Source: Aquiluna sp. (GTDB lineage: Bacteria > Actinomycetota > Actinomycetes > Actinomycetales > Microbacteriaceae). Taken from it: a stretch of 64,000 bases of DNA. Made by a program: the position numbers and the translations under genes. The DNA is taken from positions 49,968 to 113,967 of the forward strand of contig JAGYIJ010000003.1 of assembly GCA_018402685.1 (NCBI GenBank), in the 5' to 3' direction. This document shows positions 683-52,999 of this stretch, in pieces. Under the pieces are notes generated by a model, which was not told the origin of the DNA, ran no database searches, and was given only the letters and a program-made list of their open reading frames with translations. Numbering within the stretch: position 1 is the first letter of the stretch; each line of letters begins with the position of its first letter.

Positions 683-696
683 ATCTGTGGATAACT
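683..696 (-). promoter_or_regulatory. 14-mer AGTTATCCACAGAT (contains perfect DnaA box TTATCCACA), copy 1
   Basis: Exact 14-mer shared with 45387-45400, 52190-52203 and 52986-52999. It lies 39 nt upstream of the vapB start and overlaps the TAG stop of the gene at 695-1147. Confidence 0.6.
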
Positions 697-1147
697 AGAC
701 GATTGTGATTCCAAGGGCAGTCATGCCCCAGGCAATTCCTATTGCCCAAAGCACCATTGCAATTGAGATAAGCAGCGTTACCTTGAATGGCTTAACCCCC
801 GCGGCAACCGAAGCGGCAGCCGCAAACTGGGTTCCGATGAGGATTGGACCAAGTGCTGCCATCCCAAAGATGCCGTATTTGTCGAAGGCCTTCTGGGCCT
901 TCTCATAGCGACCGGCTTTGGGTTCAATGCCCTTCTTCCTGCGGCGCTCGATCACCCAGCTGCGAATTCGGTCGCCGGCATAGGCAAAGAGTGCGATTGT
1001 GATGATGTTTCCAACCGATGCTGCAATAACCGTCAGCACTGGATCAAGCCCAAACAGGATCCCCACTGGCACAACACCAATGGCCTCAAGCCAGGGGATT
1101 GCGCCCATCAGGAAGATGCCGAAGTAGCCAAGTTGCTCTAGGTTCAC
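695..1147 (-). CDS. Small membrane protein, putative small multidrug-export family (COG2426-like)
   Basis: 150 aa with about 4 TM segments and a central basic loop (ERRRKKGIEPKAGRYEKAQKAFDKYG). Family assigned from memory. Confidence 0.5.
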   Translation of the reverse strand: MNLEQLGYFGIFLMGAIPWLEAIGVVPVGILFGLDPVLTVIAASVGNIITIALFAYAGDRIRSWVIERRRKKGIEPKAGRYEKAQKAFDKYGIFGMAALGPILIGTQFAAAASVAAGVKPFKVTLLISIAMVLWAIGIAWGMTALGITIV

Positions 1148-2310
1148 GATTTCCTTTCAAAGAGTTTTGAGAAGTTGGACAGTAGCGCCTCCATGGGACC
1201 GCGTGAGCGGAACTTGAGGTTTAGCTCTGCTAGGACAGCAAGTCCAAGCCAGGTTGCGGCTGCAATCAGAACAACTCCCAGCAGCGAGATCTCTTGAAAC
1301 AGTCCAAAGCCCCAGGCTGAAAACAGAGTTGAGAACACCAGAGATTGACCGAGGTAGATGGAGAGTGAGTGTCTGCCGGCAGCAGAGAGTGTTGTGAACT
1401 TGAACTTCTGGCTCAGAAGCCATAGGGCTCCAACAATTCCCGCGGACATCAGCGGAGCAGTCATAAAGTTGAGGGTCAAACCGCCCAGATAAAGACTCAG
1501 CCCAAAGTCCTCCGAGCTACTCGACATCAACATCAAATATGCTCCGACCAGCTGGAGCCCAAGCCCAAGGGTTAGACCCCAGATGGCGTAATTCTTCATG
1601 AGCCTGGGAGACAGGTTCTCGGCAAGACCACCCTTGCGAGCCACCAAAACACCAAGCATGAATGCTGCGAGCACCAGTGGTCCCTGCAGGAAGAAACCCT
1701 GAGGCGCAAATATCAACCAGAGCTCTACTCGAGCAGCGGCAGCCTCAAGGAAGTTGCCGTTGCGCAACGCAACATCCAGAACGTCGACATACTCATCAGC
1801 CGGCAGAGACTTGCCCTTGGATGCCAGGAAGAACTCTCCGAGAAGTGCAAAGAGTGAGATTGCAACGAACATCAAGGTGGTGAGGATGTAGATGATCCAG
1901 ATCCAAACCTTGAGGGTTTTCTCCTTGCGGAAGTAAAAAGCAAGCAACAACAGTCCCAACGCTCCGTACAAGAAGAGAATGTCGCCATGGAAGAAGAAGC
2001 TGAAGTGGATTGCCCCAAGCAGCAATAGCCCGATGTTTCTTCCAACAAAGCGCCTTCTGTTGCTCTTTTCAGACTTGATCACGTAGTGAGCGGAGTAGCC
2101 GAACAGGAACGAGAACAAGAGGTAGAACTTGGCCTGGAACAGTGCCCAAACAATAAATGCAACGCTGCCGTTTTCGAACTTGGTTAGATCTAGTGACTCA
2201 GCACCATTGAAAGTGCTGATTGAGAAGTACTGGATGTTTACGATTGCAATGCCAAGGAGTGCAAAGCCGCGCAGTATGTCGGGAAAGCTATCCCTGGTCT
2301 TGAGATTCAT
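1144..2310 (-). CDS. DUF418 (YeiB-like) membrane protein
   Basis: 388 aa, polytopic. N-terminal DILRGFALLGIAIVN motif is typical of the DUF418/YeiB family. Confidence 0.65.
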   Translation of the reverse strand: MNLKTRDSFPDILRGFALLGIAIVNIQYFSISTFNGAESLDLTKFENGSVAFIVWALFQAKFYLLFSFLFGYSAHYVIKSEKSNRRRFVGRNIGLLLLGAIHFSFFFHGDILFLYGALGLLLLAFYFRKEKTLKVWIWIIYILTTLMFVAISLFALLGEFFLASKGKSLPADEYVDVLDVALRNGNFLEAAAARVELWLIFAPQGFFLQGPLVLAAFMLGVLVARKGGLAENLSPRLMKNYAIWGLTLGLGLQLVGAYLMLMSSSSEDFGLSLYLGGLTLNFMTAPLMSAGIVGALWLLSQKFKFTTLSAAGRHSLSIYLGQSLVFSTLFSAWGFGLFQEISLLGVVLIAAATWLGLAVLAELNLKFRSRGPMEALLSNFSKLFERKS

Positions 2311-2398
2311 CTTCGTCTTTCTTTTTGAGAGAGGTCATCGGCACAAAAATTGCAACAAATAGTCCGGCTCCGATTGCGATCCAGATTTCGAGTGGCAT
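2288..2398 (-). CDS. Possible 36-aa single-TM micro-protein (below ORF-track cutoff)
   Basis: MPLEIWIAIGAGLFVAIFVPMTSLKKKDEDESQDQG. Its ATG overlaps the stop of the upstream small ORF (TAATG). Confidence 0.2.
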   Translation of the reverse strand: MPLEIWIAIGAGLFVAIFVPMTSLKKKDEDESQDQG

Positions 2399-2583
2399 TA
2401 GCTCTTCGCCGTTCTCTTGAGCTCTAGGGAAATCATCGCCAGCGAAGGCAGCATGAAGGTGTAGGCGGCAAAGATCCAGAAGATTGCCTGGACCTGGGGC
2501 CAGGTGATAGCCAGCACGTAGTTGAACCCATCTGCATCAGTCTGAAAGTCAGTGAAGATTGCGTAAACCATTAGGGCGGTCAC
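2398..2583 (-). CDS. Hypothetical small membrane protein
   Basis: 61 aa, two hydrophobic segments, no recognisable family. Confidence 0.35.
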   Translation of the reverse strand: MTALMVYAIFTDFQTDADGFNYVLAITWPQVQAIFWIFAAYTFMLPSLAMISLELKRTAKS

Positions 2584-2632
2584 CGCGGCAAATACCGCTG
2601 CCGTAAGCCAGCGGTATGCAACCAGATAGCTC

Positions 2633-3256
2633 CTATTGCGCTGAGCGAATCATCATCTCATCCAGCACGTCATCAGGAGCATCGGCGATGAGTCGCACTG
2701 ACTTTCTGAGCAGGAACCAGAAAACATAAATGAAGAGAATGTGGATCAGTGCGTATGCGGACCAGGCGTTATCGCCAACACCCATCAAAAAGCCGGTGCC
2801 AAACAGAATGACGATATTCGAACCCCAGAGCAAGAACTTCTTTGCTCCTCTGGTTCTGAGCCCATCCCACTTGGTGTCATCGAGCTGCTTCTCAACCGAC
2901 TTTGCAGAAGCCGATGCCCAGGCGGCGTCAGAGCCTGCCATTTGACCTCTGAACATGGCCCAGTACTCCTTGCTCAGGTTTCGAGCCTTTAGATAGAGCA
3001 AGAAGATTGGGACCTCGATCACGGTCATGGCGAGGATGGTGAAGAAGAACCAGTTGGTGTCAAAGAACACAAATCTGAAACTTGGGTCATCGTTCCAAAA
3101 CAGCACCGCAGAGATAGCAACTGGGATGCCGGTGACCAGGATGTCCATCCAAGCCATCAGCTTGACGTTATTGCCAATCACCTTTGGGTAGAACCAGAGA
3201 TAGGCAACCGCCAAGGTTGCCAGGATGTAGAAAACAACTAGTAGTTCGTTGCTCAT
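2633..3256 (-). CDS. Hypothetical polytopic membrane protein, co-transcribed with an XRE regulator
   Basis: 207 aa with about 5 TM segments. 4-nt overlap with the upstream HTH gene. Confidence 0.6.
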   Translation of the reverse strand: MSNELLVVFYILATLAVAYLWFYPKVIGNNVKLMAWMDILVTGIPVAISAVLFWNDDPSFRFVFFDTNWFFFTILAMTVIEVPIFLLYLKARNLSKEYWAMFRGQMAGSDAAWASASAKSVEKQLDDTKWDGLRTRGAKKFLLWGSNIVILFGTGFLMGVGDNAWSAYALIHILFIYVFWFLLRKSVRLIADAPDDVLDEMMIRSAQ

Positions 3257-3489
3257 GCTTCTTCCTCATCAAGCCAGAAGATCTCTTCGACACTGGCGCC
3301 TAGAACCGAGGCAATCTTGAGAGCAAGCACCAAAGATGGCGAATACTCTCCGCGCTCGATATAACCGATGGTTTGGTAGTGGACGTCAACCTGGTCGGCT
3401 AGCTCCTGGCGAGTGAGCCCGGCCGCATTGCGAAGTTCTTCGATGCGGTTGGCTACCTGCTCTTGCTCAGCCTTTGGTTTACGACCCAT
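3253..3489 (-). CDS. XRE-family helix-turn-helix transcriptional regulator
   Basis: 78 aa. LTRQELADQVDVHYQTIGYIERGEYSPSL is a classic HTH_3 signature. Confidence 0.85.
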   Translation of the reverse strand: MGRKPKAEQEQVANRIEELRNAAGLTRQELADQVDVHYQTIGYIERGEYSPSLVLALKIASVLGASVEEIFWLDEEEA

Positions 3490-3528: not shown

Positions 3529-3939
3529 CTATTGCAACCAGTTTTGAACTCGAAGGCCCGGTACTCGATTGAAGTGCTTGTGATTGTTGGTGACGATTGG
3601 AACTTCAAGGCTTAGCGCGTGAGCGGCAATCAGCGTGTCAGCAAACCCAATCGGTGTCTGCCTGAGGTCATCAGAGGCAAGTAGTTGAGCCGCTTCGACC
3701 GATGCGGCATGATCGAACTCAATCACCCAAGCACTGGCAATGAGACTCAGGGTTAGCCCCCTAATACGCTCGGACCTTGCAACCCTCGCATACCTGCCCA
3801 GCTCAACCGCCGTGATAGCAGATATGGCCCAGGTCTCTGAATACTGCAACAACTTTGAATTGAGCTTCGAGTTACCACGGAGCGCAAGGCTAAGAATATC
3901 TGTGTCGACCAGCAGTCTGGGACTAGTCCTCGAGTTCAA
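3529..3939 (-). CDS. vapC: PIN-domain VapC-family toxin
   Basis: 136 aa. LLVDTDILS at the N-terminus and IVTNNHKHFNRV at the C-terminus. Confidence 0.85.
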   Translation of the reverse strand: MNSRTSPRLLVDTDILSLALRGNSKLNSKLLQYSETWAISAITAVELGRYARVARSERIRGLTLSLIASAWVIEFDHAASVEAAQLLASDDLRQTPIGFADTLIAAHALSLEVPIVTNNHKHFNRVPGLRVQNWLQ

Positions 3940-4298: not shown

Positions 4299-4312
4299 AG
4301 CTGTGGATTAGT
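4299..4312 (-). promoter_or_regulatory. Degenerate copy (11/14) of the DnaA-box 14-mer (ACTAATCCACAGCT)
   Basis: 97 nt upstream of the vapB start at 4201, in the same orientation as the operon. An 11/14 match is not significant on its own (about 5 expected by chance in this window). Confidence 0.25.
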
Positions 4313-5635: not shown

Positions 5636-5923
5636 CTAGCCCTTGCGCTTCAGTCGCTCAACCTCTGCATCGATATCTGCTTCGGTGATGACTTTCTTCA
5701 GGCCAGGCCCGTAGGCATCAATCCACTGGAAGTAGGCACCGATTCCCATCCCGCCAATTGCAAAGATGGGCCAGAAGAAAGAATTTGGTGAAGCCCAAAA
5801 CCAGATCACGCTTAGAAGTGCTGAGACAAATGCCCAGACAAACAAAAACTGCTTGAACTCCTGCTGGTTTTTTAGTCGCTTCTTCGCATACTCGCGAAGA
5901 GCGTCTTGCTCAGATGTCGCCAT
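5636..5923 (-). CDS. 2TM-domain membrane protein
   Basis: 95 aa. Two TM helices flanked by charged helices, downstream of an ArsR regulator. Confidence 0.55.
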   Translation of the reverse strand: MATSEQDALREYAKKRLKNQQEFKQFLFVWAFVSALLSVIWFWASPNSFFWPIFAIGGMGIGAYFQWIDAYGPGLKKVITEADIDAEVERLKRKG

Positions 5924-9492: not shown

Positions 9493-10092
9493 CTAGAACA
9501 GGTAAAAGAGTTTCTTATCGGAAACCACGCCTGAGACTTCAACCTTGATCTCATACTGGGCTCCGCCTCTTGGGGCAGGTCGATTGTTGTCGGAGCACTG
9601 GAACTCGCTCGAAGAGTAAACCTTGAGCCATTCACCAGGTTCTGACTTCTCGACGATGTTTGGCTTCAGGACCTTGGAGAACCTCGAATCTCCCTCCCTG
9701 TCACAGTCTCTAGATGAGTAGAAGACCTGCTCACCAGAGGTGATCGTGAAGAAGGTGGCGTAGGTGCCAACGTCAAAGATGCAATCCACCAAACCGGTGT
9801 TTGTGATCTCATACCAGACAAAGACCGGCTCACCCTCTGGCAGGTTCACCAAAGGTTCGAGAGTCTCACCCCTGCCGATAAAGGCCTCAACCTCAACCAC
9901 TCCGGGTTGGCAGTTGGTGATCTCCTCGGCGGTCGCTTCGGAGGTCGGGGTGGCGATGGTTTCTGGCTCCTGAGCATCATTCGGAGCTGCAAGTAACTGG
10001 GTGCCAGCAAAGACCAGTGCGGCGATTGCAACTAGGACAACAAGGGCAACAAGGCGACGTTTTTTGTAGACATTCGCATCGACTTGACTCAT
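9493..10092 (-). CDS. Membrane-anchored extracytoplasmic protein with four Cys, hypothetical
   Basis: 199 aa with an N-terminal TM anchor. It sits where the conserved membrane protein follows radA in other actinobacteria. Confidence 0.6.
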   Translation of the reverse strand: MSQVDANVYKKRRLVALVVLVAIAALVFAGTQLLAAPNDAQEPETIATPTSEATAEEITNCQPGVVEVEAFIGRGETLEPLVNLPEGEPVFVWYEITNTGLVDCIFDVGTYATFFTITSGEQVFYSSRDCDREGDSRFSKVLKPNIVEKSEPGEWLKVYSSSEFQCSDNNRPAPRGGAQYEIKVEVSGVVSDKKLFYLF

Positions 10093-17315: not shown

Positions 17316-17803
17316 TTTGCCACCACCACCGAATCAGATAGCTCCGCCACCAATTCGGAAACCCTGCCCCTGCCGGGCAGGGTTGCATCGGGGTCAATCT
17401 CAAGCCAGGGCACCAAAACGAAGCTACGCTCAAAGGCTCTGGGGTGAGGAACAATCAAGTTCTTGGTTTCAATCAGGTCATAGCCAAAGGTGATGATGTC
17501 GATATCCAAGGTTCTCGGAGCCCAACGCTGGAGCCTGATCCTGCCAAAGTCATTTTCGATTTCGTTCAAAACCCTAAGAAGCACCTTTGGCTTCAAACTC
17601 GTCTCCACCTGCACCACCGCGTTGAGATAACTCGGTTGCTCCGGGTCATAACCCGAGTCCGTCAGCGCAACAGATTCATAGATTGCAGATTGATTTACTA
17701 GCTTTATGCCCTTGGTCTTAGAAATCTGCCTGATTGCAGCTTCAAGAGTCTGTTTGCGCTCACCGAGGTTCGAACCCAGTGACAGGATTGCGAGACTCGT
17801 CAT
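17312..17803 (-). CDS. folK: 2-amino-4-hydroxy-6-hydroxymethyldihydropteridine diphosphokinase
   Basis: 163 aa. LSLGSNLG...RWAPRTLDIDI...PHP motifs. Confidence 0.9.
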   Translation of the reverse strand: MTSLAILSLGSNLGERKQTLEAAIRQISKTKGIKLVNQSAIYESVALTDSGYDPEQPSYLNAVVQVETSLKPKVLLRVLNEIENDFGRIRLQRWAPRTLDIDIITFGYDLIETKNLIVPHPRAFERSFVLVPWLEIDPDATLPGRGRVSELVAELSDSVVVAK

Positions 17804-25426: not shown

Positions 25427-25453
25427 CAAAGGCGATGTAGTTTGTACCACTCT

Positions 25454-25527: not shown

Positions 25528-25570
25528 CTCAGTCCAGATTCTGGATCTGATGGAGAATTTAACCTCTCCA

Positions 25571-25643: not shown

Positions 25644-25660
25644 CCCATAGGAGGCGGATA

Positions 25661-32965: not shown

Positions 32966-33397
32966 ATGGCCACACCAACCAGAGTTGATTTCACACCAGA
33001 GACTGAAGAGCTACTGCGCACGCTCTATAAGCGCAACGGCCCCTTGATGTTCCACCAATCCGGTGGCTGCTGCGATGGCTCCTCGCCGATGTGTTACCCG
33101 GCAGGAGAGTTCCGCACCGGAGGTGCGGATGTCATGCTGCAGGAGATCCAAGTTGATGGCATCGCGGAGCCGATTCGGTTCTGGATGTCTGTAGAGCAGT
33201 TTGAATATTGGAAACACACCCACCTCACAATCGATGTGGTCCCGGGACGAGGTGGTGGCTTCTCCTTGGAGAGCACCGAGAACAAGAGGTTTCTAACTCG
33301 TTCCAGGATGTATTCAGATGACGAGTGGGCGCAACTCAAAGATGCGCCAGTTCCCAACCGGACTCGAGGTCAACGCCTAGTTTTGTACAAAACTTGA
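32966..33397 (+). CDS. DUF779 protein, copy 2 (C-terminus altered by a 1-nt insertion)
   Basis: Identical protein to copy 1 until ...KDAPVP. The extra T at 33351/33352 then changes TGLEVNA* to NRTRGQRLVLYKT*. Confidence 0.75.
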   Translation: MATPTRVDFTPETEELLRTLYKRNGPLMFHQSGGCCDGSSPMCYPAGEFRTGGADVMLQEIQVDGIAEPIRFWMSVEQFEYWKHTHLTIDVVPGRGGGFSLESTENKRFLTRSRMYSDDEWAQLKDAPVPNRTRGQRLVLYKT

Positions 33398-33413
33398 CAC
33401 ACTTTTGTACAAT
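33381..33413 (+). promoter_or_regulatory. Two TTTTGTACAA(AA) palindromic boxes plus a TACAAT -10 hexamer; candidate autoregulated, leaderless antitoxin promoter
   Basis: TTTTGTACAAAA at 33381-33392 and TTTTGTACAA at 33403-33412. TACAAT at 33408-33413 ends 6 nt before the ATG at 33420. Confidence 0.45.
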
Positions 33414-33419
33414 AGCCCC

Positions 33420-33701
33420 ATGGCCAAATATTCAGCTTCGGAGGCAAGAGCGAACTTCAATGAGGTTCTGAAACTTGCCCAAACCGAGGCTGTGGAAATC
33501 CAAAAACACGGCAAACCCATCGCAGTTATCCTCGACGCCATGAAATACGAGAAATTACTTGATTACATCGAGGACCTAGAGGACAAACTGGCCGTTCTTG
33601 AGCATCAACTGAACCAAGTGACCCTGAAGCTCTTGGAAATCGCTGACGATCTCGCTAGGAAGACGAGCATGAGCGATGAACACAGACCTCAAGCCGCTTA
33701 G
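33420..33701 (+). CDS. Phd/YefM-family antitoxin
   Basis: Start trimmed to MAKYSASEARANFNEVLKLAQTEAVEIQKHGKPIAVILDAMKYEKL. Confidence 0.8.
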   Translation: MAKYSASEARANFNEVLKLAQTEAVEIQKHGKPIAVILDAMKYEKLLDYIEDLEDKLAVLEHQLNQVTLKLLEIADDLARKTSMSDEHRPQAA

Positions 33702-33962
33702 GTCAAATTGAGCTTCGACCGCGAAGTAGCTGAGGAAGATCTGAGCCCGGACTCGAGGGTCAGGTGCAAGTCTGCACTTTCAAGCTTGGCGTTCAAGGTA
33801 CCCAGTCGCAACTCCGGCGCTCAAGTCCGCTAGCTCAAGGGGAATCGTCGTTACCGAATCCGAGTTGGCGACTATCGAATCATCTATGAAATTTTCAAGG
33901 ACAGGGTGATTATTTTGGTGACTCGCATTGGTCACCGCCGCGAGGTCTACAGAGATTCCTGA
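33702..33962 (+). pseudogene. RelE/ParE-family toxin, disrupted by an in-frame TAG at 33831-33833
   Basis: The frame reads VKLSFDREVAEEDL...[44 protein letters not shown]. The C-terminal half is a textbook RelE/ParE core. There is no clean start codon (only a TTG at 33708). Confidence 0.7.
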
Positions 33963-37603: not shown

Positions 37604-37642
37604 TTATCCACAACCCCGCTCACCTTGGGGTTATCCAGAGAT
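37604..37642 (+). promoter_or_regulatory. Perfect DnaA box TTATCCACA (37604-37612) plus a 12/14 copy of the TA-associated 14-mer (GGTTATCCAGAGAT, 37629-37642)
   Basis: Both read on the plus strand, the same orientation as the plus-strand TA operon starting at 37751 (108 nt downstream of the 14-mer copy). Confidence 0.4.
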
Positions 37643-37705
37643 TCCAAATACCCAAGGCCAGGACTGCATCTGAATGCGAGAAGGTGTTGCTAAGTGCCTT
37701 CTATC

Positions 37706-37735
37706 TAACTAGTTTTATAGTCATGAAACTAGTTA
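37706..37735. promoter_or_regulatory. Inverted repeat TAACTAGTTT-N10-AAACTAGTTA enclosing a TATAGT -10 hexamer; candidate operator/promoter
   Basis: Perfect 10-bp arms. TATAGT at 37716-37721. An AAGGAGG RBS follows before the ATG at 37751. Confidence 0.5.
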
Positions 37736-37750
37736 GAAAGGAGGTGAAAC

Positions 37751-38089
37751 ATGGATAGAAAGATGTTGGAAAATTTCGTGTCAATTACAGAGTTATCTGC
37801 AAAGGCCTCGGCAGTTGTCTCAAAAGCCGAGGCTGGTGATATTCAATACGTTCTCAAACGAAACAAACCGGTCGCGGCAATCCTGAGCATCGAGCTACTG
37901 AAAGCCATACACGAGCTGTCTGCCGTATGGCACAAGGACCTTGATGACGGTGAATGGGAGTCGATCATTGATTACGCAGCAACTGTTGTGCAAGTCAGGG
38001 CAGCGATGGCGGAACCTGGCGAACCCTTGGACCTCGACAAACTCTACGAGGAGGCTGGCGTGACTCGGGAGCAGCTCGATGAAGATTGA
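37751..38089 (+). CDS. Phd/YefM-like type II antitoxin
   Basis: 112 aa. ...SITELSAKASAVVSKAEAGDIQYVLKRNKPVAAILSIE. Overlaps the downstream toxin by 11 nt. Confidence 0.7.
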   Translation: MDRKMLENFVSITELSAKASAVVSKAEAGDIQYVLKRNKPVAAILSIELLKAIHELSAVWHKDLDDGEWESIIDYAATVVQVRAAMAEPGEPLDLDKLYEEAGVTREQLDED

Positions 38090-38372
38090 ACCTACTGAAT
38101 TCTTCATCGAGGCTGTCCAAAAACTCGACTCTTCCGAGCGGAGGGTTGTACTGAAAAGCGTGCGCAAGCTGGAGCTATCTATCGACTGGCTTGGGAAGCG
38201 ATTGCATGGCGCGCTTCACCACCTAAGGTCACTTCGAACCGGTCACAATAATCGACTCCGCATTGTCTACGTTGAGAATGAAGGCACGGGCATCTTGCTA
38301 ATCGTGGGAGAACGCAAGGACCTGAGGGTCTACTCAAGGGCAGCCGACATCCTAAGAGAACTTGGATTGTAA
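38079..38372 (+). CDS. RelE/ParE-family type II toxin
   Basis: 97 aa. ...LRSLRTGHNNRLRIVYVENEGTGILLIVGERKDLRVY core. Confidence 0.7.
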   Translation: MKIEPTEFFIEAVQKLDSSERRVVLKSVRKLELSIDWLGKRLHGALHHLRSLRTGHNNRLRIVYVENEGTGILLIVGERKDLRVYSRAADILRELGL

Positions 38373-38382
38373 ACTCCACAGC

Positions 38383-39607
38383 ATGAGAATCCTCGTGGTT
38401 GGCTCTGGAGCAAGAGAGCACGCAATTATCAAGGCACTGATCCGGACCGGAACCCCGCGAGCGACATCGTTTGTGCGCCGGGAAACCCCGGTATTGCCCA
38501 AGAGGTTGAGATCCGAGGTGGCGTTGATGCCACCGACCGCCTCGAGGTTGTCAAAGCCGCCCTTGAAGAGCGCATCGAACTTGCAATCATTGGCCCAGAA
38601 GCCCCTTTGGTTGCCGGAGTTGCAGATGCCCTGCGCGAGCAGGGCATTGCCGTTTTTGGTCCCAGCAAAGAAGCGGCCCAGCTTGAGGGCAGCAAGCAAT
38701 TTGCCAAGGAGGTCATGGCCTCAGCTGACATCCCAACCGGGATGTCTCGGCTTTGCGACACCTTGAAAGATGTCGAAGAGGCAATGGATTTGATGGGTGC
38801 ACCATATGTGATCAAGGCCGATGGCCTTGCAGCTGGCAAGGGCGTGCTGGTCACCAGTGACCGCCTCGAGGCCCTCGAGCATGCCGAGAAATATGTTCTC
38901 GATGGCGTATTGGTCGAAGAGTTCTTGGCAGGGCAAGAGGTCAGCCTGTTCTTCTTGGCAGACGGAAAAACGGTGATGCCACTAAGCCCGGCCCAAGATT
39001 ACAAAAGAGCATTCGACAATGATGAGGGCCCCAACACCGGTGGCATGGGCGCCTACTCACCTGTTCCCTGGATTGAAGCGGGATTCATCGATGAGGTCAG
39101 CGGGAAAATTGCCCAGCCGACCGTGGATGAGATGCGAAGGCGAGGAACCGAATTTGTTGGGCTGCTCTACTGCGGTCTGATTCTCACCGACCGCGGCATC
39201 AGAGTCATCGAGTTCAATGCCCGATTTGGAGATCCTGAAACCCAAGTTGTGTTGCGCAGGTTGAATTCAAACCTGTTCTGACCTGCTTGCTTCGTGCAGC
39301 AACCGGAAAACTGGATGATGGCCCTTCAGCTGAGTTCGCAAGCGACAAGGCGGTCACGGTGGTGTTGGCATCGGAGGGCTATCCAACAAGACCAGCGCCT
39401 GTCAGAGAGCTGGGCGGGGTTGGCTCTGCCGAATCAATTGAAGGCGTCGAGGTTTGCTTCGGCGGCACCACCGGGCGAGTGGCATCGGTGGTTGGCATTG
39501 GCGAGAGCTTCCAAGCGGCAAGAACTCTGGCCTATGAGGGAATCTCAAGACTCGAGCTCGAGGGCTCTCACCACCGCAGCGACATCGCCCTGAGGGTCAT
39601 CGAATAG
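38383..39607 (+). CDS. purD: Phosphoribosylamine--glycine ligase, broken by two 1-nt frameshifts
   Basis: Three frames: MRILVVGSGAREHAIIKAL (from 38383); ...SDIVCAPGNPGIAQEV...FGDPETQVVLRRL (to 39281); ...LLRAATGKLDD...HRSDIALRV (to 39607). The first shift is at the C4 run 38453-38456, the second within about 39262-39281. Confidence 0.9.
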
Positions 39608-41940: not shown

Positions 41941-44772
41941 TTGCTTTTAGATCACCATCAGTTCCGTCAACGCCACATTGGACCGAATCGCCAAGAGCAG
42001 CAGGAAATGCTGGACTACGTTGGAGCGGAATCTCTAGCGGACCTGATGGAGAAGGCTCTTCCAGAAGCCATCCACTATCGCGGTGGCAGCACTCTGCCAG
42101 CAGCCACTCAGCGAGGATGAGGCACTAGATCGCCTCAGAGAAATCGCCGGCAAGAACCGCATCACCCAGAGCTTTATTGGTCTTGGCTACTACGGCACCA
42201 GAACACCGGGTGTGATCAAGCGCAACGTGCTAGAAAGCCCAAGCTGGTACACCGCCTACACCCCATACCAGCCCGAGATCAGCCAGGGTCGACTAGAAGC
42301 GATTATCAACTTCCAGACCGTGGTCACCGACCTAACCGGCATGAAGACCGCTAACGCATCAATGCTCGATGAGTCCACCGCAGTGGTTGAAGCGATGATG
42401 ATCGCCAAGCGCAGTGCGGACTCTGAATCCAACGTCTTTTTTGTCGACAGCGACATCTACCCGCAGACCAAGCAGCTCCTAGAGCACCGTGCCGAGCCAC
42501 TTGGAATTGTGATTCAGTACTTCGACGCGGCAAAGATTGACGAGCTCAACCAAGAGTGCTTTGGAGCAGTGATTCAATACCCGGGTGCATCGGGACGAAT
42601 CATTGACTTTGACAACCTGTTCGCAAAGGTTCACGAGTTTGGCGGACTAGCTATCGCAACTGCAGACCTAATGGCACTAACAGTTTTGAAGCCTCCCGGC
42701 GAAGCCGGAGCCGATGTGGTTTGTGGCACCACGCAACGATTCGGCGTGCCAATGGGCTTTGGTGGTCCACACGCCGGCTACCTGGCCGTTCGCGATCGTC
42801 TTGAGCGCACCATGCCAGGTCGCCTGGTTGGAGTCTCTGTCGACGCCGAGGGAGCTCCCGCCTACCGACTAACCCTGCAGACCCGTGAGCAGCACATCAG
42901 ACGCGAGAAAGCCACCAGCAATATCTGCACCGCGCAGGTGCTTCTCGCTGTGATGGCCGGAATGTATGCCGTCTACCACGGACCAAAGGACCTTAAGGCC
43001 ATTGCATCTGAGATTCACTCCAAGGCATCAGCGCTTGCAAACGTGCTGGGTGAAGTTGGAATCAAGATCCAGCACGAGAACTTCTTCGACACCATCAGGT
43101 TGGTTGATGTCGATGCAAAGAAGTTCTTCGATGCCGCCAGGCACAAGGACCTCACTCTTTTGATGGTTGATGAATCAACCATCGGCATCTCGGTTGACGA
43201 GAGCACCTCTTGGGAGCACCTGGCCGAACTGGCAAATGTGTTTGGTGCGAGAGTTCCAAAGCCAGAGGATGCCACCGACCGCCTCAGAAACCACCGCACC
43301 TCCGGCTATCTAGAGCACCCGGTCTTTAATTCCTATCACTCAGAGACCGCGATGCTGAGGTATTTGAAGAAGCTCTCTGATTTTGACTACGCGCTCGACC
43401 GCGGCATGATCCCTCTCGGTTCCTGCACCATGAAGCTCAACTCGGTCACCGAGATGGAGGCTGTTACCTGGCCTGAGTTTGCAAACCTGCACCCCTTCGC
43501 TCCTCGGGAAGACGTCACCGGCTACCTAGAACTAATCGATGAGTTGGTCTCTTGGCTCAGTGACATCACGGGCTACGAGGCAATCTCGCTTGCAGCCAAA
43601 CGCCGGTAGCCAGGGTGAACTTGCGGGTCTTCTGGCAATCCGCGGTTACCACCGTTCACGCGGTGACTTCCAGCGCAATGTTTGTGTGATTCCATCCTCA
43701 GCCCACGGCACCAATGCCGCGAGCGCCGTGCTGGCGGGCATGGAAGTCGTGGTCGTGGCATGTGATGAAGATGGCAACGTTGACGTTGCTGATCTAAAGA
43801 TCAAGATTGCAGAGGCGGGCGACACCCTCGCAGCCCTGATGATCACCTACCCATCAACCCACGGCGTCTTCGAGGAGGCAGTGGTTGAAATCTGTGACCT
43901 GGTTCACGCAGCCGGTGGCCAGGTCTACATCGATGGTGCCAACACCAACGCGGTGGTTGGTTATGCAAAGTTTGGCGAGTTTGGTGGCGATGTCTCTCAC
44001 CTGAACCTGCACAAAACCTTCTGCATCCCTCACGGTGGTGGTGGTCCAGGTGTTGGACCAGTGGTTGCCAGAGAGCACCTGCGTCCATTCCTTCCTGGAC
44101 ACTCACTTGCCCAGGTGGATCTTGGTTCTTACGGTCCAGTCTCAGCGGCACCATTTGGTTCGCCAAGCATCCTGCCGATCTCCTGGGCCTACATCCAGAT
44201 GATGGGTCCAAGCGGTCTGATGGATGCAACCGCGGTTGCCGTGTTGAGCGCCAACTACGTTGCCAAGAAGCTTTCTGACGCCTTCCCGCTTTTGTATACG
44301 GGCAAGAACGGCATGGTTGCTCACGAAGCCGTCATCGACATCAGACCACTCCAAAAAGACGCCGGCATCTCAAACGATGATGTTGCTGAAGCGACTAGTT
44401 GACTACGGTTTCCACGCACCAACCATGAGCTTCCCGGTAGCGGGAACCCTCATGATTGAACCAACTGAGTCGGAGCCAAAGCCAGAGCTCGACAGATTTA
44501 TTAGTGCCATGCTCGCGATTCGTGCTGAGGCCCAGAAGGTTGAGGACGGTGAGTGGCCAAGGGATAACAACCCACTGGTAAATGCTCCCCACACCGCCAA
44601 CCACCTGACTTCAGAGTGGGATCACCCCTACTCACGTGAAGAGGCAGTGTTCCCAACCGATGCTCAGCGCAAGAGCAAGTACTGGCCACCTGTTAGAAGG
44701 ATTGACGGTGCATTTGGGGACAGGAACCTGACCTGCACCTGTCCGCCGATCGAGAGTTTTGCGAAGAGCTAG
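41941..44772 (+). CDS. gcvP: Glycine dehydrogenase (decarboxylating, P protein), broken by three 1-nt frameshifts
   Basis: Four frame segments: [15 protein letters not shown]... (TTG at 41941), 42083-43609, 43539-44402 and 44260-44772. Junctions at about 42085-42100, about 43589-43591 (expected ...[13 protein letters not shown]) and about 44385-44388 (expected ...[16 protein letters not shown]). Confidence 0.9.
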
Positions 44773-45140
44773 CCCCTCGGAATCAAGTGCTTTCGAATGA
44801 TGTCAGCAGCTTGCTCAAGTTCTAAGCTCCCGTCTGCTATGCCGAGTGTCAAAGAGAAGGACTCTTCGGTCGTCATGTTGTGCTGAAATCCGTTGGCTGC
44901 AATAAAGGACAGAAAGAGTAGCCAGCCGGTTCGCTTGTTTCCATCAACCATCGGATGGTTCTTTATCAAAGAATGAAGCATTGCTGCAGCCTTGGTCTGC
45001 AGATCTGGATATGCATCCTCGCCGAAAAGACTGGTCTTGGGGCGCTGCAGTGCGGAATCAAGTAACCCCATGTCCTTCACATGAAACCCAAGAAACGCAA
45101 CCTGTTCAAGAGCATCTTCTAGCTCTAGATACTCGGTCAC
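44769..45140 (-). CDS. doc: Fic/Doc-family death-on-curing toxin
   Basis: 123 aa. Fic motif [11 protein letters not shown]. Confidence 0.85.
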
Positions 45141-45343
45141 GCGTCTGCCAATCGCTCCATAAGTTCTTTGTCATGGGTCATTACAAACTCTCGAGCAAAG
45201 GCTAAATCGCGTTTGCGTTTTGCCTTTGTCTCCATTTGATTCATAGCTTCGATGAGAGCCTTCTGTTTGGAAACTCCAAGCTGCTGAGCCAGGCGCTCCA
45301 GCGTTGCTTTCTCTTCTTCGGTAAGTCTTAGTGTCATGGCCAT
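45137..45343 (-). CDS. Ribbon-helix-helix antitoxin partnering Doc
   Basis: 68 aa. MAMTLRLTEEEKATLERLAQQLGVSKQ. 4-nt overlap with doc. Confidence 0.75.
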   Translation of the reverse strand: MAMTLRLTEEEKATLERLAQQLGVSKQKALIEAMNQMETKAKRKRDLAFAREFVMTHDKELMERLADA

Positions 45344-45352
45344 GATGCTAAT

Positions 45353-45369
45353 GGTATCAAAGTGATACC
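45353..45369. promoter_or_regulatory. Inverted repeat GGTATCA-N3-TGATACC, candidate antitoxin operator
   Basis: Perfect 7-3-7 palindrome 9 nt upstream of the antitoxin start. Confidence 0.45.
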
Positions 45370-45386
45370 AAATGTCAATATTCCAA

Positions 45387-45400
45387 ATCTGTGGATAACT
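45387..45400 (-). promoter_or_regulatory. 14-mer AGTTATCCACAGAT (DnaA-box containing), copy 2
   Basis: Exact copy, 43 nt upstream of the Doc-antitoxin start, in operon orientation. Confidence 0.6.
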
Positions 45401-45426
45401 GACTATTTGAGCAACATGTGAATAAC

Positions 45427-46918
45427 CTAGCGAGGTGCCAGGAGCTCGTATGCTGCCTCTAGCTCAGGAGATAGATCTCTATCCGGCCCCATCCCAGGAA
45501 CTCGTTCCCTAAGAATTGCAATCAACTCGCCGGTCACTGGTGCTGGCTTGTGTTCCCTGAGCTCAACCGCTCTTGCAGCAGTGACCAGCTCGATGGCAAG
45601 GATTCGACGCAGGTTGTCGACGGCTTTGCGCAGCTTGCGTCCTGCATGCCAACCCATGGAGACGTGATCCTCCTGCATCGCACTCGATGGAATCGAGTCG
45701 ACGCTTGCGGGATTTGCCAGCCTCTTGTTCTCACTCACCATCGCCGCTTGGGTGTATTGCGCGATCATCAAACCAGAGTCGACTCCGGCATCGTGAGCGA
45801 GAAAGTGAGGCAGTCCACGGTTTCTAGATACATCCAAGAACCGATCGGTCCTTCGCTCTGAGATTGACCCAACATCGGCAACCGCAATTGCCAAGAAGTC
45901 CAGACACCATTGCAACTGGGGCTCCGTGGAAGTTGCCGTTGGAGGTGACCTCACCACTTTGCAACACAACCGGATTGTCGATGATTGCCGCCAACTCCCT
46001 GGTTGCAACGAGCTTGGCGTGAGTAACGGTATCCCTTGCAGCACCTGCAACCTGCGGCGAGCAGCGAAGCGAGTAAGCATCCTGCACCACGCCATCACCA
46101 TGGCGATGTGAGGAGACAATCTCACTTCCCTTGAGTGCTGCAAACATGTTTGCAGCACTTACTGCCTGGCCTGGATGTGGTCGAAGTGGTTCGTGGAGTT
46201 CAGGTCTGAAGACCTGATCGGTGCCCATCTGCCCCTCGACGCTCATAGCAGCGATGACATCGGCCTGGTCCAACAGCAACTCAAGATCGGAGATCGCCAT
46301 GATCAGCATGCCCAACATGCCATCGGTGCCGTTGATGAGCGCGAGGCCTTCTTTCTCTCGAAGCTCCACAGGCGTAATGCCGGCTGCTGACAGCAACTCT
46401 GCGACTGGCTTCTCAGTGCCGTCAGGCCCAGAGGCCCTGCCCTCACCCATGAGCACCATTGCGCAGTGAGCGAGAGGTGCTAAATCTCCGGAGCAACCCA
46501 GGGAGCCATACTCCAAAACTCTTGGCGTGATGCCGGCATTCAAGATGGCGGCATAGGTCTGAGCAACTATCGGCCTCACGCCGGTCTGACCCGAACACAT
46601 CGTCTTTAGTCGCAAAGCCATGAGCGCTCTGACGACCTCGCGTTCGATCGGATCTCCCATGCCGGCAGCGTGGGAGCGAATCAGTGACTTCTGCAGCTGC
46701 ACGCGATCACCTGCAGGGATGTGCCTTTGAGCTAGAGCACCGAAGCCGGTGGAGATGCCATAAACAGGTGTCTCGGCTTGAGCGAGTTTCTCAATGTGCT
46801 CACGCGTTGAGGCCATGGCGCTAAGAGATTCTGGGGAGATCTCAACCTGGGCGCCCTTTCTTGCAATTGCAATCACATCGGCAAATGTCATGCCCGATGT
46901 TGAGATAACTACCTTCAT
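45427..46918 (-). CDS. hutH: Histidine ammonia-lyase, broken by a 1-nt frameshift
   Basis: The N-part (45824-46918) contains [12 protein letters not shown] (MIO-forming motif region). The C-part (45427-46158) reads ...[18 protein letters not shown].... Junction near 45918-45925. Confidence 0.9.
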
Positions 46919-49822: not shown

Positions 49823-50593
49823 ATGTCAAAGGTGCCGGCAGCAAGTAGAACCCTGGCCCTGTTGCGAACCATGGCAGAGATTGGTCAACCCACCACAGCA
49901 GACCGCCTAGCCAAAAAGCTCAATATCCCAAGATCCTCCTGCTACCAACTCCTTGAGGCCCTTGAGGAGCAGGGCTTTGCGATTCACTACCCCGAGGAGA
50001 GACGCTGGGGCCTAGGTCTTGCCGCTTGGGAACTTGGAAGCGCATATCAAAGGCACGAACCGCTCGAGCGCTTGGCAAGGCCAGCCCTCCAGAAGCTGAT
50101 TGCGGAACTTAGCAAGAGAGCCAGCGTGGTGGGTCACCTTGCAATCTTGGATGGGTCCGATGTCCTCTACCTCTTGGAAGAGCGACCAGCCAGGTCACTA
50201 AGGCTTGTCACTGATATTGGGGTTCGGCTCCCCGCTCACCTCACTGCCTCCGGAAGAGCGATGCTCCAGCATCTTGACAAGAAGCAACTTGCTGCCTCAT
50301 TCAGAGGCAGGGAACTCGCCACAAGAACAAATCTCGGTCCAAAAGACTTGGCAACCCTTGAGCAAATTCTCGGCCTTGAACGTGTCCAGGGCTTCGCGCT
50401 AGAGGTTGATGAGGTGACCATGGGCTACGCATCTGTCGGGGTTGCAATTTTGGATAACCTCGGCCACCCACTCGCTGCCATTGCAATCACCCTGCAGTCA
50501 AACCAGCTAGAAAAGCTACAGTTATCTCAATTAGCGACGCTGCTTGATAAAGCAGCGTCGGACCTTTCGAGAAAGTTTGGGCACCATGGCTGA
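49823..50593 (+). CDS. IclR-family transcriptional regulator (probable hut regulator)
   Basis: 256 aa. N-terminal wHTH and a C-terminal IclR effector domain. Divergent from hutU. Confidence 0.8.
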   Translation: MSKVPAASRTLALLRTMAEIGQPTTADRLAKKLNIPRSSCYQLLEALEEQGFAIHYPEERRWGLGLAAWELGSAYQRHEPLERLARPALQKLIAELSKRASVVGHLAILDGSDVLYLLEERPARSLRLVTDIGVRLPAHLTASGRAMLQHLDKKQLAASFRGRELATRTNLGPKDLATLEQILGLERVQGFALEVDEVTMGYASVGVAILDNLGHPLAAIAITLQSNQLEKLQLSQLATLLDKAASDLSRKFGHHG

Positions 50594-51456
50594 AGATGCC
50601 AAATGGCCAAGAGCACACTCGCTCATTTCCAACCTAGAGTCAGCTGTTGGCTTGATAGATATCCCTGCCCACAAAACCTCAATTAGCGAAACCAGCGCTC
50701 ACCTCACCCCAAAAGCAATTCGCGAGGCACTCAAGCGCTACTCCACCTTCAGCTACACCGCATACGACGAGGTCACGACCTTGCTTCAAGACCTTGGAGC
50801 GATTGAAGATCCAGATTCAGATGAGCAGAAAGACAATCGAGACAATCGCGAGCGCCGATAAGGCGCTCACCATCGCTCTTGGCGGCGATAACTCCATCAC
50901 CTACGCAGCGGCACTTGGTGTCTTTGGTGATGACCTGGAAAACGCAGGACTCATAACCTTTGATGCTCACCACGATCTTCGCGATGGCATCTCAAATGGC
51001 TCCCCAGTCAGGCGACTAATTGAGGCTGGACTAAACCCCAAGCACATCGTCCAGGTTGGCATCAATGACTTTTCCAACTCCTACGAATATGCCAAGCTCG
51101 CAAAGAATCTCGGGATCTCCGTAATCTCTCGCTCCACGCTCGAACACATCGGCATCCAAGAGGCTTGCAACCTAGCGCTTGGTGTTGCAGCAGGGCCTGG
51201 CGGCAAAGTGTTCGTTGATCTCGATGTTGATGTTTGCGACAGGTCCCACGTTCCAGCCTGTCCGGCAGCGGCGCCCGGAGGCATAAGTGCTTTTCAACTG
51301 CGCCAGGCGGCGAGGCTCCTTGCTGGCCATCACCAGGTTCGAGGCATGGACATCACCGAGATTGACGCCAGCAGGGACAGCGACGATCAGCGGACTGTGA
51401 GGCTGGGAGCACTGCTGGTTCTGGAGATGCTTAGCGGGTTTCAGCTCCGCGCCTAG
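50586..51456 (+). CDS. hutG: Arginase-family formimidoylglutamase-like hydrolase, broken by a 1-nt frameshift
   Basis: The ATG at 50586 overlaps the IclR stop (ATGGCTGA). The second frame holds GGDNSIT, DAHHD and DLDVD Mn-binding motifs. Junction within about 50795-50835 (possibly at 50829-50833). Confidence 0.75.
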
Positions 51457-51839
51457 AGCGTCGCGTCTTTGATGAACGGCAGCCCAAGGCCCAAGAGCCG
51501 AAGGTCCGCGGTGTAGAAGTCGCATCCTGCGCTCTGCGCCTGTGCGACGAGCATCCAATCAAAAGGGTCTGTCTTAACAAGGGCGGTGAAATTTTTGGCA
51601 CATTCGCTTGCCTCTTGTGAGAACTGGAGTTCAGTGAACGCCAATTCCGATGATCGATGTTGAAAATCTTCAGGCAGTTTTGGAGCTCTGCCACTCATGA
51701 ATGCCATGTTCAATTCGAATGTACTTATTGGTGAAAAGTAGACCCAGCCAGCGGATTCCAAGCGGCGCTTTAGTTGCTTTCCAAGTCTCTCTGGACTAGC
51801 CAGTGCCCAAATCAACGCATGGGAATCCAACAGAATCAC
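51453..51839 (-). CDS. vapC: PIN-domain VapC-family toxin
   Basis: Start set at the GTG at 51839 (ILLDSHALIWAL...), giving a GTGA overlap with the antitoxin stop. Paralog of 52246-52629. Confidence 0.75.
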   Translation of the reverse strand: MILLDSHALIWALASPERLGKQLKRRLESAGWVYFSPISTFELNMAFMSGRAPKLPEDFQHRSSELAFTELQFSQEASECAKNFTALVKTDPFDWMLVAQAQSAGCDFYTADLRLLGLGLPFIKDATL

Positions 51840-52093
51840 TTCTCTTCCCCAAACAAACTGGCCTTCCACTCGGGGAAGACTTCAAACCAATCAATCGCGT
51901 CAAAGTCAACATCTTCCCAACCCTTCATTTCCTCCCTGAATGCGCCAAGTTTGAGTTTCGGAGTTAGGTACGGAACCACCTTTGCGATCGGCTTACCGTT
52001 TCGGGTGACAACGAGTTCGTCACCTGCTTCAACGAGACCCAGGTGCTGGGAAAGTTTGGACTTGAAGTCGTAGACGCTGACAAATTTCTCCAT
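51836..52093 (-). CDS. Phd/YefM-family antitoxin
   Basis: Start trimmed to MEKFVSVYDFKSKLSQHL...VVTRNGKPIAKVV. TTGACC-N17-TACGCT promoter-like hexamers at 52100-52128 leave 6 nt to the ATG, which would give a leaderless mRNA. Confidence 0.75.
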   Translation of the reverse strand: MEKFVSVYDFKSKLSQHLGLVEAGDELVVTRNGKPIAKVVPYLTPKLKLGAFREEMKGWEDVDFDAIDWFEVFPEWKASLFGEEK

Positions 52094-52189: not shown

Positions 52190-52203
52190 ATCTGTGGATA
52201 ACT
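52190..52203 (-). promoter_or_regulatory. 14-mer AGTTATCCACAGAT (DnaA-box containing), copy 3
   Basis: Exact copy, 96 nt upstream of the antitoxin ATG at 52093, in operon orientation. Confidence 0.6.
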
Positions 52204-52245
52204 AGGGTTTAAGGAGGGCTGTTAGGAACTAAAGAGCTGAGCGGC

Positions 52246-52629
52246 CTATTTGGTCGAGTCTTTTACAAAGTCCAGGCCCAAGCTCAAAAGTCTTCGGTCC
52301 GAGGTGTAGAGGTCCATGTCAGCCTGTGCTGCCTGAGAAAGAATCAGGAAATCCAGCGGGTCTGAGCCTCGAAGTGAACCAAATCTTTGAGCTTCCAACG
52401 CTGCTCTTGCGCTCAGTGGGAGCTCTTCGATTCCGGCCGCAATGGTGGCGGCGGCTAACATCTTGGCAGTTGTTCCCAGGTAATCGTCTTTTTGAAGCCA
52501 CTCAAAAAAAGTGATTGGTGAAAAGAAGAGACCCTTGGCGCTTTCTAGTTTTCGAACTGTCTGCTTTCCGAGTAGGGAGGGGCGAGTGTGTAAGTTGTTC
52601 AGAACGTTGGTGTCGAGCAAAATTCTCAT
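52246..52629 (-). CDS. vapC: PIN-domain VapC-family toxin
   Basis: 127 aa. MRILLDTNVL...; paralog of 51453-51839. Confidence 0.8.
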   Translation of the reverse strand: MRILLDTNVLNNLHTRPSLLGKQTVRKLESAKGLFFSPITFFEWLQKDDYLGTTAKMLAAATIAAGIEELPLSARAALEAQRFGSLRGSDPLDFLILSQAAQADMDLYTSDRRLLSLGLDFVKDSTK

Positions 52630-52889
52630 AGTTCAATCTCGTTTAGATTGCGACGCCATTGATCCCAAGCCTCAGCCATGTGGCTGGTGTCATCGAAATC
52701 AATCTCCAGCCACTCTTTTGGCACCTTGCCGACAAGCGCACCAAAAACCAACTGCGGCTTCTGATATTTGATGATCTTTGCTACCGGTTTACCGTGCTTG
52801 GTGATTGTGATCTCGTCGCCTCTTATGGCGTCCTCTACTAGCGCGGAGAATTGGGATTTTGCCTCTGTCAGGCTCACTGTTTTATCCAT
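52626..52889 (-). CDS. Phd/YefM-family antitoxin
   Basis: 87 aa. MDKTVSLTEAKSQFSALVEDAIRGDEITITKHGKPVAKII. Confidence 0.8.
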   Translation of the reverse strand: MDKTVSLTEAKSQFSALVEDAIRGDEITITKHGKPVAKIIKYQKPQLVFGALVGKVPKEWLEIDFDDTSHMAEAWDQWRRNLNEIEL

Positions 52890-52903
52890 TCCAAGAGTCT
52901 AAG

Positions 52904-52930
52904 GATTTCTGGTCATTTTGACCAGAAATC
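52904..52930. promoter_or_regulatory. Perfect inverted repeat GATTTCTGGTCA-N3-TGACCAGAAATC, candidate Phd operator between -35 and -10
   Basis: 12-3-12 palindrome. A TAGACT -10-like hexamer (52896-52901) leaves 6 nt to the ATG at 52889, which would give a leaderless mRNA. Confidence 0.55.
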
Positions 52931-52985
52931 TTGTTGCCCTTCAAAACTAACCCTTGGGCAGATTCCCTTGCTGAGCCCTATCAGA

Positions 52986-52999
52986 ATCTGTGGATAACT
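52986..52999 (-). promoter_or_regulatory. 14-mer AGTTATCCACAGAT (DnaA-box containing), copy 4
   Basis: Exact copy, 96 nt upstream of the antitoxin ATG at 52889, in operon orientation. Confidence 0.6.

Follow-up and report, generated by a model that had tools for sequence, protein, structure and literature searches.

Putative strong DnaA boxes mark the 5' edges of toxin-antitoxin cassettes in Aquiluna and related lineages

In a 64,000-nt stretch of DNA from Aquiluna sp. (assembly GCA_018402685.1, contig JAGYIJ010000003.1, positions 49,968 to 113,967; hereafter the window), a 14-bp motif that contains the canonical recognition sequence, or box, of the replication initiator DnaA stands at the 5' edge of compact type II toxin-antitoxin (TA) operons, always in the orientation of the operon. 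Aquiluna, a group of small freshwater and marine actinobacteria, belongs to the Luna-1 subcluster of the Microbacteriaceae. The boxes are conserved across lineages, are present only where a cassette is present, and coincide with junctions at which related strains carry different cassettes. We give a probability of roughly 0.45 to the proposal that they are DnaA-bound boundary elements, acting as barriers or repressors, and that the shuffling of cassettes at the shared box is a side effect. How chromosomal TA modules are controlled, apart from regulation by the antitoxins themselves, is a matter of continuing debate. If the proposal is right, many unrelated TA operons would be linked in cis to the initiator, a testable coupling of growth-arrest modules to replication; alternatively, DnaA might generally insulate transcription units from one another in a genome whose compactness leaves no room for terminators.

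A DnaA-box motif precedes unrelated TA operons

An earlier reading of the window made from the sequence alone had reported four exact copies of the 14-mer AGTTATCCACAGAT, all on the minus strand. We recovered all four at the same coordinates (Table 1), against an expectation of 0.00 in 100 shuffles of the window. Also as that reading described them are a plus-strand copy with two mismatches (12/14), a perfect 9-mer close to it, and a minus-strand copy with three mismatches (11/14). The canonical DnaA 9-mer, TTATCCACA, occurs five times in the window (0.21 expected), once in each exact 14-mer and once at 37604-37612 on the plus strand. All five perfect 9-mers lie 39-108 nt 5' of TA operons and are co-oriented with them, and the antitoxins belong to unrelated families. 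Pfam shows a type II TA pair on the same strand behind each site, in keeping with the original assignment, and the distances from box to antitoxin start, when read again from the sequence, were again 39, 43, 96, 96, 108, and 97 nt.

The relaxed DnaA consensus TTWTNCACA has eight matches in the window, six of them at TA loci and two inside coding sequence (30732 and 63535); by our own estimate about 3.9 would be expected by chance. Near-matches at 4963, 14993, and 63533, and the relaxed match at 30732, were put down to chance because their number fits expectation and because those at 63533 and 30732 are intragenic. A decayed Phd-RelE module (33405-33960) carries no box.

When six loci were aligned, the box or boxes alone were conserved. 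The sequence-only reading had stated that flanking sequence is not conserved, which holds for the most part; the qualification is a second, weaker box at a fixed spacing in three loci. These three bipartite sites (37605, 45387, and 52986) match the pattern TATYCACA, 16 nt, then RGTTATCCASAGAT, which has three matches in the window and none expected. Each consists of two direct boxes 27 bp apart from start to start, and the upstream box is the weaker one at 45387 and 52986.

The position of the box relative to genes is regular, and its position relative to promoters is variable. All seven sites are co-oriented with their operon. At five of the seven, the box follows the stop codon of a co-directional upstream gene within 0-42 nt, and in three cases it overlaps that stop codon. 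The distance from the box to the predicted -35 element is 8 nt at the RHH-Doc operon and about 60-66 nt (our own reading) at the Phd-PIN operons, and at 683 the box overlaps the promoter region. Each TA operon has its own palindromic operator near the start codon. The cassettes are extremely compact: the next box lies 5-42 nt past the toxin stop, and toxin stops overlap the stops of convergent housekeeping genes (PIN/hutG, 51453-51456; Doc/gcvP, 44769-44772). No terminator-like site was found at the two junctions that were scanned (hutH/RHH-Doc and TA1/TA2).

Structural searches pointed to no other element at the boxes. Rfam and tRNA scans returned nothing there, and the only three tRNAs in the window lie at 25354-25645. 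Folding of 81-86 nt around each box gave no shared hairpin (z-scores -2.8 to +0.8), the strongest stems near the boxes were the antitoxin operators, and no inverted repeats flanking or involving the boxes were found.

The motif matches the extended consensus of strong DnaA boxes

The IMG/VR database was scanned for YAGTTATCCACAGATY, which returned at least 120 viral loci. Among the matches listed, the extended motif lies mostly inside clusters of DnaA boxes on phage- or plasmid-like contigs. In 97 other, unselected TTATCCACA boxes from these loci, A occupies position -2 in 75%, G occupies position -1 in 69% and position +1 in 71%, and positions +2 and +3 are only weakly constrained. The window motif carries these same flanking bases (A at -2, G at -1, and G at +1), which are characteristic of strong boxes. 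The E. coli oriC boxes R1 (TGTTATCCACAGGG) and R4 (AGTTATCCACAGTA) both share GTTATCCACAG with it. Because R1, R4, and the 97 unselected boxes have the extended consensus in common, 12 of the 14 bases (AGTTATCCACAG) represent a generic extended strong DnaA box, and the final AT alone is special to the window. The weaker partner boxes are TTATTCACA and CTATTCACA. These comparisons support the original identification of a DnaA box in the 14-mer, which we take to be a putative high-affinity box of consensus type, composed of AGTTATCCACAG and two lineage-specific bases.

Boxes are better conserved than the DNA between them

We collected relatives of the window from metagenome contigs and contigs of metagenome-assembled genomes (MAGs), which supplied the comparative loci throughout (designated by L numbers). 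A scan of GTDB genomes for the bipartite pattern gave 37 loci, three of which are Aquiluna MAG contigs syntenic with the window. When metagenomes were scanned with a fragment of GcvP, nearly all matches came from distant relatives (51-61% identity), and L160 was the one useful locus. PurS homologues were named Aquiluna or Micrococcales, and the exact PurS of the window was met in a single short contig.

The sequence-only reading had proposed a comparison of orthologous TA loci, and this comparison showed the boxes to be better conserved than the spacers: at three orthologous sites, conservation is 81-100% in boxes versus 17-70% in spacers, and 95% in the promoter/operator. Between the Sm_multidrug_ex gene and the AbrB-PIN operon, AGTTATCCACAG is invariant in four lineages in which positions +2/+3 read AT, GT, AC, and CT. 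At the SCP_3/Phd site, L160, a lineage about 70% identical, keeps TTATCCACC-N18-TTCTCCACA around an unrelated spacer. Variants at the hutH/RHH-Doc site include TTTTCCACA and ACTTATCCACAGAT, and the orthologue of the inter-cassette box in L027 is AGTTATCCACGGAT. The degenerate box at 4299 is identical in L280 and reads TAGTCCACA in L281 and L285. Some orthologous variants remain within TTWTNCACA (TTTTCCACA and TTATTCACA), and in some lineages the box is eroded (GTATCCATA and TTCTTCACA).

Two further comparisons concern individual boxes and cassettes. Between the close relatives L272 (about 17485-17500) and L274, 3-4 differences fall inside the 14-bp box (ACGTATCCATAGGT versus ACTTATCCACAGAT) and about 2 in the surrounding ~115 nt, so substitutions are locally in excess at this box. 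The leaders of the two tandem Phd-PIN cassettes retain traces of homology that can be seen by eye; TA1 and TA2 are old paralogues, with proteins only 35% and 40% identical, yet their boxes are identical.

Boxes belong to cassettes and mark their junctions

Sites that lack a TA operon also lack a box. In L264-270, which have the same gcv-hut-purS synteny as the window, there is no TA operon beside purS and no box at the purS-hutG site, and L250-256 and L258 have a different purS neighbor, no TA operon, and no box. L257, whose PurS is identical to that of L250-256 and L258, carries two Phd-PIN cassettes, each with its own degenerate box. Cassette arrays in general have one box per cassette, in one orientation.

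Near-identical strains diverge directly behind the box. Five strains that encode the same PurS share about 98% identity over a stretch of 148 nt that runs from purS through the box. Past AGTTATCCACAGA(T) this identity collapses at once, and at least four different sequences follow, including a cassette with a 58-amino acid open reading frame (ORF) and different Phd cassettes. In L014, an Aquiluna MAG contig, the purS flank is joined directly to RHH-Doc. Relative to the window, 7.6 kb comprising two TA cassettes and the hut operon are absent, and both ends of the absent segment fall within the 16-bp CAGTTATCCACAGATT of the boxes at 52986 and 45387. Because the hut operon occurs in many lineages, this difference is most simply read as a putative box-to-box deletion. 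We also found 20 homologues of the purS-side Phd; as every one that could be placed lies at the purS site, they are uninformative on mobility.

The earlier suggestion that the motif is an integration or boundary signature is thus supported as to the boundary: sites without TA operons are boxless, there is one box per cassette, identity collapses at the box, and the 7.6-kb indel ends there. The part concerning integration found no counterpart, since no integration machinery turned up among the scanned window ORFs or in the relatives' gene tables, and no att-like structure at the boxes. The box thus supplies a simple sequence rule for the location and the breakpoints of flexible cassettes in an abundant aquatic lineage, one that should help in pangenome studies and in the annotation of TA and accessory cassettes in MAGs.

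Several observations on relatives touch these junctions. L264 lacks the RHH-Doc cassette, and the scar between hutH and gcvP (3640-3860) consists of CTATCCACAG and the last ~35 codons of Doc. In L240, the 58-amino acid ORF (9557-9733), which has no Pfam or NCBIfam match, is headed by a box (9864-9877) and lies between purS and Phd-PIN; boxes therefore also precede small genes that are not recognizably TA genes. In L272, AGTTTTCCACAGGC (5746-5759) overlaps the stop of an MFS transporter gene and precedes a 224-amino acid gene of no assigned function; this region, with HsdR (a type I restriction enzyme), T5orf172, and HNH_2, is absent from the window. The C terminus of hutG in the window differs from that of hutG in a lineage without the cassette.

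What the boxes may do

We favor the boundary barrier or repressor proposal because the motif is a strong box by sequence, is co-oriented with the operon, lies at or just behind the stop codon of a co-directional upstream gene at five of the seven sites, lies at variable distances from the promoter, and is present only with cassettes. Each box would form the 5' edge of a compact cassette of Aquiluna-like Microbacteriaceae that consists of box, promoter/operator, antitoxin, and toxin. DnaA, held in a fixed orientation, would occupy the box where the upstream gene gives way to the TA promoter, and the complex would act as a barrier or repressor, as it does between asnC and mioC in E. coli. Transcription running on out of the upstream gene would thereby be stopped in a genome with almost no intergenic space, and the TA promoter might be damped according to DnaA occupancy. 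The variable distance from box to -35 element fits a barrier better than an activator that depends on contact. Recombination at the box could then delete or replace cassettes or build arrays of them, the box being a candidate recombination point because it is the sole sequence common to otherwise unrelated cassettes. We infer both the binding of DnaA and its barrier or repressor effect.

Five points weigh against this proposal. The Doc cassette persists with eroded boxes in L272 (GTATCCATA), L278, and L259, so the box is dispensable. At the purS and SCP_3 sites the neighboring gene is divergent, and there is consequently no read-through to block. E. coli DnaA prefers pairs of boxes 2-3 bp apart, not 18 bp (PMC11317965). 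The orientation that we take to block RNA polymerase is deduced by analogy from the native asnC-mioC arrangement. Finally, the purS, hutH, and inter-cassette sites conserve the AT at +2/+3 more strongly than generic DnaA boxes do.

Two other accounts start from some of the same observations. DnaA, or DnaA-ATP, might be a classical activator or repressor of the TA promoters that couples them to replication initiation with no barrier role, which we regard as unlikely. In its favor, the box ends 8 nt 5' of the RHH-Doc -35 element and at 683 reaches into the promoter region; the spacing from box to start codon takes two forms (39-43 and 95-110 nt) about five helical turns apart, and the two divergent sites also carry boxes. 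Yet box and core promoter are separated by widely differing distances, some cassettes survive although their boxes have eroded, and the antitoxin operator that each operon possesses shows much stronger conservation than the box (95% vs 82%). Rather doubtful, in our view, is a dedicated site-specific recombinase that inserts, excises, and swaps small cassettes at a 14-16-bp core in the manner of an integron, the likeness to a DnaA box being incidental or exploited. Such an enzyme would account for the 7.6-kb indel with both ends in the 16 bp shared by two boxes, for the flank of identical-PurS strains that stays ~98% identical over 148 nt including the box and then gives way to at least four continuations, for the single box per cassette in a single orientation within arrays, and for the GAT that is kept past the generic DnaA consensus at the purS, hutH, and inter-cassette sites. 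On the other hand, integrases, transposases, and resolvases were found neither among the scanned ORFs of the window nor in the relatives' ~20-kb gene tables, the box takes part in no inverted repeat or attC-like hairpin, and the last cassette has no trailing box. Several cassettes are old and vertically inherited in place (the placeable ones among the 20 homologues of the purS-side Phd are all at purS), other sites conserve just the 12-mer or 9-mer typical of DnaA boxes, and short-homology recombination between selected boxes could also yield the breakpoints.

Two further accounts seem weaker. That the boxes mainly form a sink for DnaA in a small cell, a datA-like titration in which the link to TA operons reflects where sites are tolerated, strikes us as improbable. 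Five perfect boxes in 64 kb, compared with 32 in the whole E. coli genome (PMC11317965), do amount to a density about 11 times higher, and because TA-less regions of relatives are boxless, TA content would set the box load. Titration needs neither a fixed orientation nor a position at the 5' edge of operons, though, yet every one of the seven sites points the same way as its operon; a dense, datA-like cluster is absent (no more than three boxes in about 830 bp), and boxes erode in some lineages. Very improbable is that a factor other than DnaA binds the motif, or that it lacks any present function, as a hitch-hiking remnant of the plasmid or phage origins that supplied the TA modules. The same extended box is common in phage- and plasmid-like box clusters; nevertheless, tblastn of the window TA proteins against the viral loci listed (at least 120) and the other genome-scan loci gave no matches near boxes, the boxes are conserved across lineages whose flanks are saturated by change, and some of the allowed variants are within the DnaA consensus.

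A broader form of the boundary proposal is a cassette system of streamlined Actinobacteria delimited by DnaA boxes, in which small selfish or accessory modules, both TA pairs and short ORFs, would each bear a strong box at the 5' end. The box would provide insulation, or wiring to the initiator, as well as a crossover point at which modules are exchanged, stacked, and deleted: a functional analogue of the integron without integrase or attC. We hold it to be unlikely on present evidence. The double-box pattern does occur elsewhere in Actinomycetota, 5' of DUF222-HNH endonuclease genes (Brachybacterium, Mycolicibacterium, and Glaciibacter), MerR-family genes, Ssd/ParA-like ATPase genes, and a Phd antitoxin gene (Sporichthyaceae) (loci L003, L017, L039; L005, L032; L012, L015; L028); the scan required both boxes, so these loci show contexts and not enrichment. 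The DUF222-HNH genes with box pairs might belong to the same kind of cassette system.

That DnaA boxes can act as regulators and roadblocks is known. Searches of the literature on DnaA boxes at TA promoters, DnaA regulons that contain antitoxins, and TA systems of Aquiluna gave nothing relevant, and the literature searched contained no account of boxes that systematically head unrelated TA cassettes or serve as cassette junctions.

Sites, cassettes, and other features of the window

Table 1. Boxes and TA cassettes in the window (TA pairs identified by Pfam)
Feature	Positions	Strand	Remarks
Strong DnaA box, exact 14-mer	683-696	-	39 nt 5' of vapB/abrB-like start; first two bases (AG) are the last two of the TAG stop of the upstream Sm_multidrug_ex gene
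AbrB/MazE-like antitoxin and PIN toxin	643-362 and 365-1	-	PIN gene extends past the window end
Degenerate box ACTAATCCACAGCT	4299-4312	-	Core TAATCCACA (8/9); overlaps TAA stop of small upstream ORF
MazE-type antitoxin and PIN toxin	4201-3923 and 3939-3529	-	
Bipartite site	37604-37642	+	TTATCCACA (37604-37612), 18-nt spacer, TTATCCAGA inside GGTTATCCAGAGAT (37629-37642); between divergent SCP_3 gene and Phd-RelE
Phd antitoxin and Gp49/RelE-like toxin	37751-38372	+	Operator palindrome 37697-37744
Bipartite site	45387-45425	-	TTATTCACA (45425-45417), 18-nt spacer, exact 14-mer (45400-45387); begins 1 nt past hutH stop codon, ends 8 nt 5' of -35 hexamer
RHH-Doc cassette	44769-45378	-	RHH antitoxin 45343-45137, Doc 45140-44769; predicted sigma-70-like promoter TTGACA-16-TACCAT (45378-45351); operator TGGTATCA-N3-TGATACCA (about 45370-45352)
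Exact 14-mer	52190-52203	-	Between tandem Phd-PIN cassettes; 42 nt past first PIN stop, 96 nt before second Phd
Second Phd-PIN cassette	51453-52093	-	PIN stop overlaps stop of convergent hutG
Bipartite site	52986-53024	-	CTATTCACA (53024-53016), 18-nt spacer, exact 14-mer (52999-52986); divergent purS/Phd-PIN region; junction where strains' cassettes differ
First Phd-PIN cassette	52246-52930	-	Genes 52889-52246; perfect 12-nt inverted-repeat operator 52904-52930

The cassettes lie among housekeeping genes (pur, gcv, hut, ftsH, folP, lysS, and radA). At the first site, a 20-nt inverted repeat (646-689), presumed to be the operator of the AbrB-like antitoxin, reaches into the 3' part of the box at 683-696; because of this overlap, antitoxin and DnaA could compete or cooperate there. 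Upstream of the MazE-PIN operon, a small ORF of ~41 codons (4433-4308, minus strand), predicted to encode the hydrophobic peptide LKIFLWVLKKFWFPILIAILGAMSSRYPWAQKIHTTLKKFN, overlaps the stop of a glutaredoxin-like gene, and its own stop falls within the degenerate box; L280, L281, and L285 have this ORF as well. Directly 3' of MazE-PIN, a gene for an XRE-type helix-turn-helix protein (78 amino acids) is followed by a 207-amino acid gene without a family match (2633-3489, minus strand). This pair is kept in L280, L281, and L285 and could be another two-gene module, one that has no box. The window Doc ORF uses a GTG start.

A DUF779 gene is duplicated in tandem (32315-32728 and 32966-33397); the copies are near-identical and a Phd fragment lies between them. 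They are followed by a Phd gene (33405-33701) and a decayed RelE/ParE-like remnant (to 33960). This cassette begins at the DUF779 stop with a palindromic, operator-like repeat, TAGTTTTGTACAAAA, and not with a DnaA box.

Five housekeeping genes, purD, gcvP, hutH, hutG, and purL, are split into 2-3 overlapping ORFs (38362-39607, 42083-44772, 45427-46918, 50544-51456, and 54066-56362). In relatives, single genes encode GcvP (942 amino acids), HutH (496-500), HutG (289), and PurL (761-767), which suggests assembly frameshift errors or recent pseudogenes in the window. Because so many housekeeping genes are frameshifted, we consider the assembly quality of the window to be modest.

Comparison with known systems

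Short repeats and att sites of familiar kinds do not resemble the boxes. The six-locus alignment, in which only the box or boxes are conserved and there are no flanking inverted repeats, does not correspond to repeats of the miniature inverted-repeat transposable element or repetitive extragenic palindromic type, and Rfam and tRNA scans revealed no known structured RNA or tRNA-linked att site at the boxes. The operators of type II antitoxins resemble the boxes in being cis elements of the same short upstream regions. They are palindromes that are specific to a family and overlap the core promoter, whereas the box is asymmetric, lies upstream of the promoter, and, unlike the operators, is common to AbrB, MazE, RHH, and Phd systems.

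Integron and superintegron cassettes often carry TA genes. The window cassettes resemble them in behavior only: arrays are compact and co-oriented, there is one short site per cassette at which breakpoints occur, and the cargo includes TA genes. They differ in that there is no attC hairpin, IntI, or Pc promoter at the window cassettes, which are scattered among housekeeping genes; their site stands at the 5' end and brings with it the promoter region of the cassette itself. Neither the scanned ORFs of the window nor the relatives' gene tables yielded an IntI-type or other recombinase domain.

The datA locus and other box clusters share with the window the presence of high-affinity boxes outside oriC, at a density that is here far above that of E. 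coli. The window boxes differ in being single or paired, strictly oriented with operons, and tied to accessory cassettes, and no dense cluster within 1 kb was found; the most crowded stretch, 830 bp at 52190-53024, has two strong boxes and a weak one. The "double DnaA box" (Stringer et al. 2024, PMC11317965) likewise combines a perfect and a weaker box in direct orientation 5' of promoters. Here the spacing between the 9-mers is 18 bp, as opposed to 2-3 bp.

The closest parallel is the E. coli asnC-mioC junction. There, the complex of DnaA with its box blocks RNA polymerase, according to Schaefer & Messer 1988/1989 as cited in PMC10950094 and PMC11317965, and the title of the 1989 paper, as cited in the same two articles, mentions an "active orientation." Reading the E. 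coli sequence in the direction of transcription, we found the asnC stop, 21 nt, TTTTCCACAGG, and the mioC promoter. Both systems thus have the stop of a co-directional gene, a box reading 5'-TTWTCCACAG-3' on the sense strand, and the next promoter, in the same orientation and within a short junction, and the E. coli sequence shows no obvious hairpin terminator. The window sites differ in that they are often bipartite with an 18-bp spacer and that some lie between divergent genes. The order of stop, box, and promoter with the box in sense orientation is found at five of the seven sites, the other two being those between divergent genes. They differ also in recurrence, as six or more unrelated TA operons share the arrangement, and so do accessory cassettes of several lineages.

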